A DNA stretch of 2,519 nt from Escherichia coli (GTDB taxonomy: Bacteria > Pseudomonadota > Gammaproteobacteria > Enterobacterales > Enterobacteriaceae). Position numbers and translations under genes: made by a program. Shown piece after piece: positions 1-2,519 of this stretch (its first letter is position 1; every line of letters starts with the position of its first letter). Below the pieces are notes generated by a model. It was not told the origin of the DNA. It saw only the letters and a program-made list of their open reading frames with translations, and made no database searches. The stretch lies in assembly GCF_003334355.1 (NCBI RefSeq), contig NZ_QOWP01000074.1; one strand, given 5' to 3'.

Positions 1-77
1 AAGGGCGAGCGTAGCGAGTGCCATTTACCCTTGACGACACTCCGGATAAAACAGGCTTGGCAGTGGTGGGGGGTGGC
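1..77. repeat. Terminal redundancy, copy 1: identical to 2443-2519. Indicates a circular molecule of 2,442 bp (wrap-around or assembler k-mer overlap).
   Basis: Base-by-base identity of the first and last 77 nt of the window. Confidence 0.95.
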
Positions 78-101
78 GCGAAGCGACGCCTTCCACCTGC
101 C
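59..101. other. GC-rich nested stem-loop region; alternative or additional oriT or protein-binding candidate.
   Basis: GGCAGTGGTGG (59-69) pairs imperfectly with CCACCTGCC (93-101). An inner GGCG (75-78) / CGCC (87-90) stem encloses the loop CGAAGCGA. Confidence 0.3.
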
Positions 102-149
102 AGACCGCCGTTGATTTTGACCTTCTGGCAGCTTGCTGCCCGAACGATT

Positions 150-192
150 TTGCGTAGCAAAGTCTAGTGAGTACACTATCATCCTGATAGTG
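150..192 (+). promoter_or_regulatory. Candidate mob promoter overlapping a perfect hairpin (CACTATCA-TCC-TGATAGTG, 174-192); candidate oriT/nic region and Mob autoregulation site.
   Basis: The -35-like TTGCGT (150-155) and -10-like TACACT (172-177) are 16 nt apart. The 8-bp perfect inverted repeat with a 3-nt loop lies about 70 bp upstream of the mob start. In MOBV plasmids (pMV158, pBBR1) oriT lies just upstream of mob and overlaps its promoter. No nic site is identified. Confidence 0.3.
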
Positions 193-258
193 GCCCGCCG
201 GAGGTATCGCAATGCGCTCCCCCGCCTGGCTGAATGAATGCCGGAATCAGGGGGGAAC

Positions 259-1227
259 ATGGCGAACTACGCGATAATGCGCTGCAAAAAGCTGACGGGA
301 ATGGGAAGCGTGGCCAGCGCGTTGCAGCACTGCTACCGAGAGCGTGAGACGCCGAACGCTAACGCTGAACGGACACCAGAAAACTACTGCTCTGTGTCCA
401 AATCAACGGATCAGGCAATGGGGCGTGTGCGGGAGCTGCTGCCGGAAAAACGCCGTAAAGATGCGGTACTGGCCGTTGAATACGTTATGACAGCAAGCCC
501 TGAGTGGTGGAAAGAGGCCACACCACGGCAGCAGGCGGAGTTTTTCGCCCGCTCTGAGCAATGGCTGGAGAAGAAATACGGGAAGGATCGTGTTGTGGCG
601 GCGGTGGTTCACCGGGACGAGGCCACCCCGCACCTGTCTGCGTTCGTGGTGCCATTGACGCAGGATGGACGGCTGTCCGCGAAAGAGTTTATTGGCGGGC
701 GGTCAAAGATGCGTGAAGATCAGAGCACCTACGCTGAATCAGTAAAAAAACTGGGTCTTGAGCGCGGCATCGAGGGAAGCCGCGCCACGCATCAGACAGT
801 TCAGCACTACTACGAATCGATAAACCGTGGCACCCGTAGCCAGGTATCGATCTCGCCGGAGGCGCTGGAGCCGCGTGTATTGCGGAAGGGCATTTTCACC
901 AAAGACGTGGAAGATCAGGCAGCCATAGCCAAACGTCTAAGCCACGCAGTGAACGATGGCTTTGCAGGAACCATCGCTATGGCCTCTCAGAGCGCCCAGA
1001 ACGCAAAAAGAGCGCGTGAGCTACAGAAGACTATGGATGCGCAGCAGAAACGCCTACAGAGCGTCACAGAGCCTTTTAAGGGGCTTTCCAGAGAGCAGAT
1101 GACCGAAATCCTGATGATGGCTCAGCGGTTTAAGCAGCAAAACCAGGAAAAGGAAAAACAGCAGCGTATTGAACGTGAAAAACAGCGACAGACGCGATCG
1201 CGTGGCATGGGTGGTATGGAGCGTTAG
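259..1227 (+). CDS. mob: Plasmid mobilisation relaxase, Mob/Pre (MOBV) family, 322 aa from ATG 259. The ORF track's upstream in-frame ATG at 238 would add 7 residues (MPESGGN) and is less likely.
   Basis: N-terminus MANYAIMRCKK...SALQHCYRERE has the same layout as pMV158 MobM (MSYMVARMQK...FKHNER), including the HxxR motif with the conserved His. It also carries RKDAVLAVEYVMT and VVHRDEATPHLSAFVVP (HxDExxPH metal-binding motif), then GLERG and HQTV, all matching MobM from memory. A G-rich Shine-Dalgarno (AGGGGGG, 249-255) lies 3 nt before ATG 259. The long uninterrupted ORF is GC-rich and ends with a Q/E/K/R-rich C-terminal tail. Confidence 0.9.
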   Translation: MANYAIMRCKKLTGMGSVASALQHCYRERETPNANAERTPENYCSVSKSTDQAMGRVRELLPEKRRKDAVLAVEYVMTASPEWWKEATPRQQAEFFARSEQWLEKKYGKDRVVAAVVHRDEATPHLSAFVVPLTQDGRLSAKEFIGGRSKMREDQSTYAESVKKLGLERGIEGSRATHQTVQHYYESINRGTRSQVSISPEALEPRVLRKGIFTKDVEDQAAIAKRLSHAVNDGFAGTIAMASQSAQNAKRARELQKTMDAQQKRLQSVTEPFKGLSREQMTEILMMAQRFKQQNQEKEKQQRIEREKQRQTRSRGMGGMER

Positions 1228-1255
1228 TTTTGATGCGATGCAGGATAGGGCTAAC

Positions 1256-1280
1256 GCCGCAAAGTGACGTCATTTGCGGC
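1256..1280. repeat. Near-perfect 25-bp palindrome GCCGCAAA-G-TGACGTCA-TTTGCGGC between the convergent mob and 76-aa ORF ends.
   Basis: The outer 8-bp arms are exact reverse complements and the central TGACGTCA is itself palindromic. No U-tract follows on either strand, so it is not a canonical intrinsic terminator. It could be a protein-binding site, a structure-dependent transcript end, or a single-strand initiation or resolution signal. Confidence 0.5.
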
Positions 1281-1296
1281 ATTCACCACGAAAAAA

Positions 1297-1527
1297 TTAA
1301 TCATTCAGATGGTAATCATGTTTTTTTAAAATAGAAAAAGCTGCGTTTTTCTGCTTTGGTGACAAACCCTTAGTTGAGTATTTATTACCGCTAGTTCTAC
1401 GATATATGCTGTAAACACTGCTTAAAAAAGTACGCTCCCAAACAGTCAGAACCTCATTCTTTTTTAGTGAATCATGCAGCATTAGCCTGTCTACATTTTT
1501 AAAAAGTTTATCTTCAGCATTCATCAT
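1297..1527 (-). CDS. Hypothetical small basic protein (76 aa) of unknown function, probably co-transcribed with rep.
   Basis: The ATG-ATG start (1527-1522) overlaps the last 14 nt of rep in another frame. A GAAGG Shine-Dalgarno motif lies about 6 nt upstream on the - strand. Composition matches rep, and the stop is TAA at 1297-1299. No family recognised; the protein is Lys/Ser-rich. Confidence 0.4.
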   Translation of the reverse strand: MMNAEDKLFKNVDRLMLHDSLKKNEVLTVWERTFLSSVYSIYRRTSGNKYSTKGLSPKQKNAAFSILKKHDYHLND

Positions 1528-2017
1528 CCATTACCTTCGTCTGCACCGTTCTTCCATTGGTGTCATAACTGATCTTTAACTCAATTTTCTTTCTTCTTTC
1601 GTAAATTGATGGCCAGTCTCCCCGTGCAAAAAGAAAGGGGTTAGCTTCAAGTTCCCCACGCCCTGCCCGGAAGAATATTTGTTTATCTACAAGAGCCGCA
1701 ATTATGTTTTTAAAGGTCTGATATTCAATATGAACCCTGGGCTGTATGGTTTTTTCAAATCTAGTTTTTGATACAGACACAAACCCATCCCATCCAATCA
1801 GCATTGCCAATTGTAAAAGCACATCATTTTGAGATTTTGATAAACCATGAATCATCGCAATGTCTGCAATGTATAGCTTGACGTAGGGAGGTTCGGCTGG
1901 GATGGAAAAGGTCTCGATCTTAGAGTCTTGTTTTACCTCACCGTTTTCATCCATGTATGTATGCCGTTCAAGCCTAGAAATCTTTTTCGTATTCACTCCA
2001 GCCCCACGTTTCGCCAT
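1514..2017 (-). CDS. rep: Putative plasmid replication initiator (small, 167 aa, iteron-associated). Family not securely recognised; possibly a small RepL-like or winged-helix Rep.
   Basis: The ORF sits directly downstream, on its own strand, of a 22-bp iteron array and an inverted-repeat operator that reuses the iteron core. Its central segment (PPYVKLYIADIAMIHGLSKSQNDVLLQLAMLIGWDG) looks like a helix-turn-helix or winged-helix DNA-binding region. AT-rich codon usage matches the surrounding replication module. The function is assigned from context, not homology. Confidence 0.7.
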   Translation of the reverse strand: MAKRGAGVNTKKISRLERHTYMDENGEVKQDSKIETFSIPAEPPYVKLYIADIAMIHGLSKSQNDVLLQLAMLIGWDGFVSVSKTRFEKTIQPRVHIEYQTFKNIIAALVDKQIFFRAGRGELEANPFLFARGDWPSIYERRKKIELKISYDTNGRTVQTKVMDDEC

Positions 2018-2020
2018 GAT

Positions 2021-2044
2021 TTAGTACTCGCATTTAAGTACTAA
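2021..2044. promoter_or_regulatory. Inverted repeat (8-bp arms TTAGTACT / AGTACTAA, 8-nt spacer) reusing the iteron core; candidate Rep autorepression operator.
   Basis: The arms at 2021-2028 and 2037-2044 are exact reverse complements. TTAGTACT is also the core of every iteron. The repeat sits between the rep start codon (2015-2017) and the putative -35, overlapping the putative -10. Confidence 0.6.
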
Positions 2045-2060
2045 AGAGACATACAGTCAA
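2032..2060 (-). promoter_or_regulatory. Candidate sigma70-type promoter for rep.
   Basis: On the - strand there is a -35 TTGACT (2060..2055), a 17-nt spacer and a -10 TTAAAT (2037..2032). This predicts a very short leader before ATG 2017 and only a weak GAG-type Shine-Dalgarno, so the call is tentative. Confidence 0.35.
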
Positions 2061-2074
2061 GTCCTTTGCATCAA

Positions 2075-2170
2075 GTACGATTAGTACTTGAGGTGAGTAC
2101 GATTAGTCCTTGAGGTGAGTACGATTAGTACTTGAGGTGAGTACGATTGGTACTTGAGGTGAGTACGATT
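2075..2170. repeat. Iteron array: four complete 22-bp direct repeats (2075-2096, 2097-2118, 2119-2140, 2141-2162) plus a partial fifth copy (2163-2170). Likely Rep-binding sites of the vegetative origin.
   Basis: The unit GTACGATTAGTACTTGAGGTGA is exactly tandem with 22-bp (two helical turn) periodicity. Copies 1 and 3 are identical; copy 2 has one change (A to C at 2108) and copy 4 one change (A to G at 2149). The array lies immediately upstream of the rep promoter region. Confidence 0.9.
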
Positions 2171-2203
2171 CTTCGCTCTAGCCCTTGGTACAAGCGGGTT
2201 CCC

Positions 2204-2224
2204 ATATCTATATCTATATATTAA
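2204..2224. other. Short AT-rich tract with TATATC-like repeats; candidate DNA unwinding element adjacent to the iterons.
   Basis: ATATCTATATCTATATATTA sits about 35 bp beyond the last iteron, on the side away from rep, the usual position of a DUE. It is only about 20 bp, so the call is weak. Confidence 0.3.
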
Positions 2225-2248
2225 GGGGGAAAATAAGGGCTGAAAAAC

Positions 2249-2282
2249 GGCATTTTTAGACACTGAAAAACTGCCTTTTTTT
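2249..2282 (+). terminator. Terminator-like hairpin with T-tract between the origin region and the ColE1-like segment; possibly bidirectional.
   Basis: GGCATTTTT (2249-2257) pairs with AAAAACTGCC (2266-2275) with one bulged C and an 8-nt loop, followed directly by T7 (2276-2282). The - strand version is followed by GTTTTT. The stem is AT-rich, so stability is modest. Confidence 0.3.
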
Positions 2283-2321
2283 AGCAAGGAGTGTACGCAT
2301 TTCTATGTACGGGGAGTGGAA

Positions 2322-2425
2322 ATTCCGCTTCCTCGCTTTGGCTGTTCGTTCCTCGTCGCGTTGCTCCTGCGGTACGCCTCAGCCAAAGCTGCGGCGAGCG
2401 GTTCCTGCTCTTTCAAAGACGATTT
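2322..2425. other. Segment resembling the region just downstream of the ColE1/pMB1 origin (as in pBR322/pUC backbones); candidate single-strand initiation or primosome assembly (ssi/pas-like) element. Contains a 10-bp inverted repeat (2335-2344 / 2380-2389).
   Basis: TTCCGCTTCCTCGCT (2323-2337) and GCTGCGGCGAGCGGT (2389-2403) are exact matches to strings I recall from the pUC/pBR322 backbone. The following 19 nt match at about 13 positions to ATCAGCTCACTCAAAGGCG. The intervening sequence differs and forms the stem GCTTTGGCTG / CAGCCAAAGC with a loop of about 35 nt. Function is assigned from memory. Confidence 0.45.
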
Positions 2426-2442
2426 CATTGCCTGATTTCGTC

Positions 2443-2519
2443 AAGGGCGAGCGTAGCGAGTGCCATTTACCCTTGACGACACTCCGGATAAAACAGGCTT
2501 GGCAGTGGTGGGGGGTGGC
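2443..2519. repeat. Terminal redundancy, copy 2: identical to 1-77.
   Basis: Base-by-base identity with positions 1-77. Confidence 0.95.

Follow-up and report, generated by a model that had tools for sequence, protein, structure and literature searches.

A small Escherichia coli contig with identical ends read as a 2,442-bp circular mobilizable plasmid

Mobilization by relaxases of the MOBV family has its prototype in the Streptococcus plasmid pMV158, for which the experimentally defined minimal origin of transfer (oriT) consists of the IR1 hairpin followed by 8 nucleotides (nt), ...ATAGTGTG/TTATAC (PMC3105389). Conjugative plasmids of the IncX type have two oriT positions (PMC3402527). Here we describe a window of 2,519 nt, the whole stretch of DNA that was analysed (contig NZ_QOWP01000074.1 of the Escherichia coli assembly GCF_003334355.1), in which predicted oriTs of both kinds occur together. 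We read the window, with a probability of about 0.95, as one full copy of a 2,442-base-pair (bp) circular cryptic mobilizable plasmid of Enterobacterales that was linearized by a de Bruijn graph assembler, with its k = 77 ends duplicated. The plasmid itself is already known, being represented many times over by near-identical public records, and a terminal overlap of this sort is an everyday artefact of assembly. Some novelty attaches only to the dual-oriT layout, together with its apparent role in the fusion of the plasmid with an IncX3 plasmid that carries NDM-5.

Terminal overlap and closure of the circle

The first and last 77 nt of the window are identical at 77 of 77 positions, and 77 is the longest length at which prefix and suffix agree. 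Removal of one copy leaves 2,442 bp of unique sequence, exactly as the sequence-only reading of this DNA had stated. The chance expectation for exact direct repeats of 77 nt in 2.5 kb is about 1.4 × 10−40; the longest direct repeat besides the 22-bp iteron array spans 21 nt and is merely 76% identical. The 77-nt repeat is placed exactly at both termini, as is typical of a circular molecule recorded in linear form. Assemblers are commonly run with a k-max of 77, and adjoining contigs of a cycle share k nt, such that the length of the cycle is the sum of L − k (PMC9104695). We infer that a de Bruijn graph assembler wrote the final k-mer (k = 77) at both ends of the contig, which is a reasonable explanation that fits common settings.

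Closure was judged from independently deposited sequence, without reads of the source sample. A megablast search of the 2,442 bp against PLSDB returned 427 matching records, and PLSDB and RefSeq together hold at least 13 circular records of 2,442–2,445 bp with 99.7–99.9% identity over 100% of the query. These near-identical circles were isolated from human, poultry and wastewater sources and represent five genera (E. coli, Salmonella, Klebsiella, Shigella and Enterobacter); 3 substitutions separate the window from the best-matching record. The full-length relatives all measure 2,441–2,445 bp and none is 2,519 bp. Independent circular records start at circle positions 2406, 346 and 2382, with the 77-mer single in each, and a 200-nt junction probe (2383–2442 joined to 1–140, with a single 77-mer) has an exact match and is entirely internal in two of three full-length records. 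Plasmids of 2,029, 2,043 and 2,367 bp have another replication gene, yet the circle segment 2277–2442 plus 1–1284 aligns to them as a single unbroken alignment across the junction. Because independent records of the same length, differently rotated, read through the junction, the 2,442-bp circle is closed, which bears out the earlier proposal that the molecule is complete. The window thus has both the prefix–suffix identity of a circular contig with a k-mer overlap and a closure that is backed by independent records.

Two other explanations of the overlap were weighed. Assembly graphs are known to suffer from phantom cycles (PMC9104695), and the sequence could exist only within a larger replicon, either a cointegrate or a tandem multimer, with the loop closed by the assembler through a repeat. 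Cointegrate, double-replicon and near-dimer records of the plasmid do exist (L003, L015 and L019, which are described below); however, the known cointegrate copy is bounded by a repeat of 38–51 bp, which is shorter than k = 77 and so would not close a k = 77 cycle. The predicted length of the circle also matches to the base many independently closed monomer records, and a tandem multimer would be biologically the same replicon. We therefore consider a phantom cycle very improbable. Slimmer still is the chance that the 77-bp repeat is real, either as an internal duplication in a 2,519-bp replicon or as the terminal or attachment repeats that bound a linear or integrated element: although terminal direct repeats cannot be told from wrap-around in the window alone, and one integrated copy of the plasmid exists in a Proteus IncX3 plasmid, the 77-mer is single in those full-length relatives that were checked, the window encodes no integrase or transposase, none of the 267 matches in 5,426 complete E. 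coli genomes is chromosomal (all are plasmid-borne) and the integrated copy is flanked by a 38–51-bp repeat of the IncX-type site at 1234–1284, with the 77-mer single and internal.

The integrated copy, the only one found, is in pPM1-NDM5 of Proteus mirabilis (NZ_OQ230782.1; L003, 4001–6493), a 48-kb IncX3 NDM-5 plasmid. It is opened at window positions 1234–1284 and retains the window junction intact in its middle, and this amounts to an outward-facing PCR performed in silico. The genuine 77-bp repeat around a linear or integrated element that the sequence-only reading had named as the finding that would overturn it is accordingly unsupported.

We acknowledge several points that weigh against our reading of the window as a closed mobilizable plasmid linearized at k = 77. 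Some of the public records were themselves circularized by graph-based assemblers. That the overlap stems from k = 77 is only a probable explanation, and in this particular sample the plasmid may have been present as a monomer, as a multimer or alongside a cointegrate. The putative replication initiator (Rep) has no direct Pfam or NCBIfam match, and we found no paper with an experimental test of any nick site or replication function for this plasmid. In practice, positions 2443–2519 can be dropped and the record treated as a 2,442-bp circle in which the 77 nt are counted once, and no gene is lost at the junction. The positions of the features are listed in Table 1.

Table 1. Features of the 2,519-nt window, in window coordinates
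Feature	Position	Strand	Description	Basis or further detail
First copy of the 77-nt overlap	1–77		Real plasmid sequence, single per circle	Identity to 2443–2519; single in the independent circular records L001, L002 and L004 and in the cointegrate L003
Imperfect long hairpin	56–107	+	TGGCAGTGGTGG...CCACCTGCCA; upstream of mobV	Left arm inside the duplicated 77-mer; read from the sequence
Predicted cognate MobV oriT	147–176	+	Hairpin ATTTTGC-GTA-GCAAAGT, then 8 nt CTAGTGAG/TACAC	Predicted nick between 171 and 172
mobV	259–1227	+	MOBV-family (Mob_Pre) relaxase, 322 amino acids (aa)	RefSeq WP_000024818.1
IncX (R6K-like, MOBP-type) oriT copy	1234–1284	-	Inverted repeat AATGCCGCAAA...TTTGCGGCGTT, AGCCC, TATCCTG/CATCGCA	Predicted nick between 1241 and 1240
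orf76	1297–1527	-	76 aa; overlaps the end of rep by 14 nt	Annotated in RefSeq relatives
rep	1514–2017	-	Putative replication initiator, 167 aa (160 aa from the RefSeq start)	Winged-helix core, distantly RepL-like
Iteron array	2074–2170		4.4 tandem copies of the 22-bp unit AGTACGATTAGTACTTGAGGTG	Tandem Repeats Finder score 180, 96% matches
A+T-rich ATATCT repeats	2204–2219		Candidate DNA-unwinding element	Adjoin the iterons
Covarying stem-loop	2326–2400	+	Conserved	DNA fold −18.6 kcal/mol, z = −2.95 versus shuffled controls
Perfect 10-bp inverted repeat	2438–2479		TCGTCAAGGG / CCCTTGACGA, 22-nt spacer; circle arms 2438–2442 plus 1–5, and 28–37	Repeat analysis
Second copy of the 77-nt overlap	2443–2519		Linearization artefact	Independent records are 2,442 bp

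The MobV relaxase and its predicted transfer origin

Judged by its sequence, the element is a cryptic MOBV mobilizable plasmid. The transfer half (circle about 2277–1284) has a G+C content of 57% and encodes MobV, which scores 161.9 bits against the NCBIfam MobV equivalog (cut-off of 100; E = 1.8 × 10−47). Residues 4–185 match the relaxase domain of MobM of pMV158 (Protein Data Bank (PDB) 4lvi; E = 2 × 10−15). In this alignment, HRDEATPH is placed opposite HLDESTPH, the HxDE..PH metal motif, and LQHCYR opposite FKHNER, the N-terminal His motif.

The predicted MobV oriT is about 90 nt upstream of mobV. The same hairpin and motif precede mobV in a Pseudomonas plasmid with a MobV that is 77% identical, and in a Salmonella plasmid (MobV 66% identical), in which the stem is a compensatory TTTAC/GTAAA; a Psychrobacter plasmid has the related motif TAGTAAGTACAC. 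The DNA that surrounds the motif in the Pseudomonas, Salmonella and Psychrobacter plasmids cannot be aligned. As far as sequence evidence goes, the site has the make-up of a cognate MOBV oriT, with a GTGxG/T nick motif some 8 nt after the inverted repeat and a location upstream of the relaxase gene. We place the predicted cognate oriT and its nick here because of the layout, which is like that of pMV158, and the conservation upstream of mobV across genera; MobV is predicted to nick its own oriT at this site. Just past the predicted nick is a hairpin, CACTATCA-TCC-TGATAGTG, and window position 184, within its 3-nt loop, is C compared with T in the closest 2,442-bp records; C is also found in the more distant relatives L015–L017.

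An IncX-type site as a predicted second transfer origin

The IncX-type site separates mobV and orf76, which converge on it. Over 51 nt, it shows 86% identity to a site that occurs twice in IncX-type conjugative plasmids, and it has matches in 2,498 PLSDB records, 1,553 of them from conjugative plasmids, which typically have two copies. Those of IncX3 and IncX5 plasmids are upstream of ddp1/mobP1 (taxA/taxC) and beside rep/ddp3, the same as the two oriT positions of IncX plasmids cited above. Compared with IncX3, the 38-nt core is identical at 36 of 38 positions. By homology and by the position of the copies, the site therefore belongs with the IncX (R6K-like) oriTs. The minus-strand TATCCTG/CATCGCA resembles the RP4-type nick consensus, and the predicted nick was placed on this basis. 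All close relatives examined have the site together with mobV, but more distant MobV plasmids are without it, and it is thus an addition of this enterobacterial lineage.

Other roles for this site were considered and rejected. It is not MobV's own oriT, given that the distant MobV plasmids without the site keep the upstream motif. Nor is the hairpin at 1253–1283 adequately accounted for as a mere bidirectional terminator between mobV and orf76, which would leave unexplained the 36/38 identity with IncX oriTs that extends into the nick-like region.

As a second oriT, on the opposite strand and just downstream of mobV, the site would enable IncX plasmids to mobilize the small plasmid in trans. 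With two oriTs on opposite strands, its own of the MOBV type and a captured one of the IncX type, the plasmid could be mobilized without MobV by IncX plasmids, including IncX3 carbapenemase plasmids, and the captured site could also serve for relaxase-mediated oriT–oriT fusion, as in pPM1-NDM5. We propose this arrangement tentatively, at slightly less than even odds. Our literature search found no paper describing the dual-oriT layout, or its role in IncX3 fusion, for this plasmid family, and nothing specific on the named plasmids, on the IncX nick sequence or on oriT-mediated IncX3 cointegrates.

Fusion with an IncX3 NDM-5 plasmid

In pPM1-NDM5, the whole small plasmid is inserted at the IncX3 oriT upstream of ddp1/mobP1 and is flanked by two variants of the oriT core. 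The left junction consists of the IncX3 flank and the variant of the small-plasmid site, and the right junction consists of the small-plasmid flank and the IncX3 variant. Because the variants are exchanged between the left and right junctions, the crossover can be placed within the 18 nt TGCGATGCAGGATAGGGC that hold the predicted nick. The position of this crossover fits, and suggests, fusion by relaxase-mediated recombination between the two oriTs; homologous recombination over 18–38 bp could also have given rise to it.

Replication region

The replication half has a G+C content of 38–42%. The change is sharp, from about 57% over window positions 1–1284 to 38–42% over 1285–2300; it falls at the distal arm of the IncX-type oriT (1284), the point from which relatives with other replicons also diverge.

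We identified 48 homologues of Rep, mostly on contigs of a few kilobases. Six of the 22 homologues that were aligned match the Pfam family RepL (PF05732) at E ≤ 1 × 10−3, with a best value of 1 × 10−7. The distant homologues are on contigs of 2.3–3.8 kb, one of which has a Mob_Pre gene. An AlphaFold model of Rep (predicted local distance difference test score of 85–96 for residues 50–130) has a helix–turn–helix and a wing. Searched with Foldseek against the PDB, the model retrieves weak, generic matches to winged-helix regulators of the MarR type and no Rep structure. A profile of the Rep alignment returns noise only from PDB sequences (E ≥ 0.2), the pairwise comparison of Rep with an annotated RepL is insignificant (E = 0.07), and neither Rep nor orf76 has a match in PHROGs, PADLOC or NCBIfam. 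We conclude that Rep is probably an iteron-regulated, distantly RepL-like initiator, which may or may not belong to RepL proper. PLSDB and MOB-suite assign no replicon type to these plasmids, in which Rep is annotated as 'hypothetical protein'.

The product of orf76 is 86–96% identical in L015, L016 and L018, and the gene is probably translationally coupled to rep because the two overlap. The iteron array is 57 nt upstream of the start of rep, and the iterons are presumed to be the Rep binding site, the origin and the rep operator. Tandem repeats by the gene for the initiator, with an A+T-rich stretch, are the hallmarks of an iteron-controlled replicon, and all are present here. The window contains a single 8-of-9 match to a DnaA box, inside rep, which is no more than expected by chance, and sites in the window that resemble promoters and terminators occur at chance frequency only. 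Between the A+T-rich stretch and the stem-loop at 2326–2400 are two 18-nt direct repeats, CTGAAAAAC(G/T)GC(A/C)TTTTT (2240–2280), 23 nt apart.

The stem-loop itself is 80–95% conserved in about 200 conjugative plasmids. In the two that were examined, of the IncN (L009, 2501–2573) and IncX5 (L010, 2501–2634) types, it is in non-coding DNA beside rep. Compensatory double changes affect 6 of its 26 pairs, among only 5 sequences. The conjugative plasmids that bear it span several genera, including Arsenophonus, Sodalis and Pantoea, and the hairpin is unannotated in the matching records listed. A permissive Rfam scan of the whole window, this hairpin included, returned no RNA family. The outer stem recalls the primosome assembly site region of ColE1-type vectors. 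Nomura (1991, cited in PMC6856555) reportedly described single-strand initiation signals in F, R6K, R100 and ColE2. Most likely, the hairpin primes synthesis of the complementary strand as a single-strand initiation signal.

Features that cross the junction

The junction had been expected to split or duplicate features, and this is only partly so. In the re-circularized sequence, open reading frames (ORFs) of 83 aa on the plus strand and of 107 aa and 53 aa on the minus strand cross it, and conserved non-coding DNA is affected; however, the two longest of these ORFs are not genes, and no gene is split. The 83-aa and 107-aa ORFs were rejected as split genes given that stops or frameshifts interrupt them in the relatives L006, L008, L015, L016 and L017 and that they are unannotated in RefSeq. 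The relatives have three RefSeq-annotated genes, all of which are inside the window.

An oriT-proximal region had likewise been placed at the junction. The predicted MobV oriT begins about 70 nt beyond the 77-mer and so does not lie there, whereas the 10-bp inverted repeat and the left arm of the long hairpin do. This inverted repeat straddles the junction and is kept in six relatives, with the sequence continuous across the junction. In L017, a divergent relative, about 95% of the block that forms the long hairpin is still conserved, and the hairpin may assist either the transfer origin or the mobV promoter as an accessory site.

Relatives and significance

The plasmid is widespread as a cryptic passenger among Enterobacterales from clinical and animal sources, and its replicon is still unnamed. 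One relative, pEC0674 (L018, NZ_MF684783.1; 6,268 bp), has a backbone of mobV, rep and orf76 that is 93% identical and an insert with genes for mcr-5.1, a major facilitator superfamily transporter and ChrB. The family can thus be a vehicle for resistance, because the backbone of pEC0674 carries mcr-5.1, which confers colistin resistance. We see modest epidemiological interest in movement by way of the two predicted oriTs, on account of mcr-5.1 in pEC0674 and of the fusion in the NDM-5 IncX3 plasmid.

Several relatives differ in their replication modules. The 2,367-bp plasmid L008 (NZ_CP182197.1; regions 1–84 and 1635–2066) keeps the 22-bp iteron array (3.8 copies) and has no RepL-like gene, in place of which is a gene for a MarR-like winged-helix protein of 143 aa, accompanied by 21-bp repeats of its own. 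The 22-bp iterons of L008 may thus be orphans that serve as an incompatibility determinant. L015 (CP099049.1; 3,433 bp) has one mobV and both replication modules, that is, the RepL-like rep with orf76 and the MarR-like gene, and looks like a fusion of the two types of small plasmid. L019 (NZ_CP139363.1; 4,362 bp) consists of nearly two copies of the plasmid, with one mobV truncated, and is either a real deleted dimer or an artefact of long-read assembly.

Comparison with known systems

The nearest known plasmids are pS58-2k from Salmonella (NZ_CP065107.1) and p2018-06-4CC_3 (NZ_AP027892.1) and pEC22-7 (NZ_CP060898.1) from E. coli, which are 2,442 bp in length, have the same gene order and are 99.8–99.9% identical to the circle. 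They differ from it by a few single-nucleotide polymorphisms (for example, at 184, 1316/1317 and 2069), and the 77-nt duplicate occurs only in the window.

With pMV158, the plasmid has in common a homologous relaxase and an oriT that is 5′ of the relaxase gene and consists of a hairpin, 8 nt and a GTG(T/A)G/T nick motif. The two differ in replication, which in pMV158 is of the rolling-circle type with RepB, whereas the initiator here is an unrelated winged-helix, RepL-like protein accompanied by iterons; pMV158 also has no second oriT of the IncX type. In its replication half, the plasmid resembles the small plasmids of the RepL family (PF05732; for example, pSTEC711_2, with an annotated RepL), which have winged-helix initiators of 160–180 aa on plasmids of 2–4 kb; pSTEC711_2 further shares the conserved hairpin along with the stretch that precedes mob. 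The Rep protein of the window, unlike that family, is below every Pfam threshold, and its pairwise similarity to annotated RepL is insignificant.

The second oriT connects the plasmid to the IncX plasmids (R6K and the IncX3 pNDM types, with their TaxA/TaxC relaxosome). The likeness is in the 38-nt core TGCGATGCAGGATAGGGC(T/A)AACGCCGCAAA(G/A)TGACGTC, which is common to both IncX3 oriT copies, and about the first 33 nt of which are also shared with IncX5. In contrast to the IncX plasmids, the small plasmid is without TaxA, TaxC and a type IV secretion system, and the distal arm of the inverted repeat differs.

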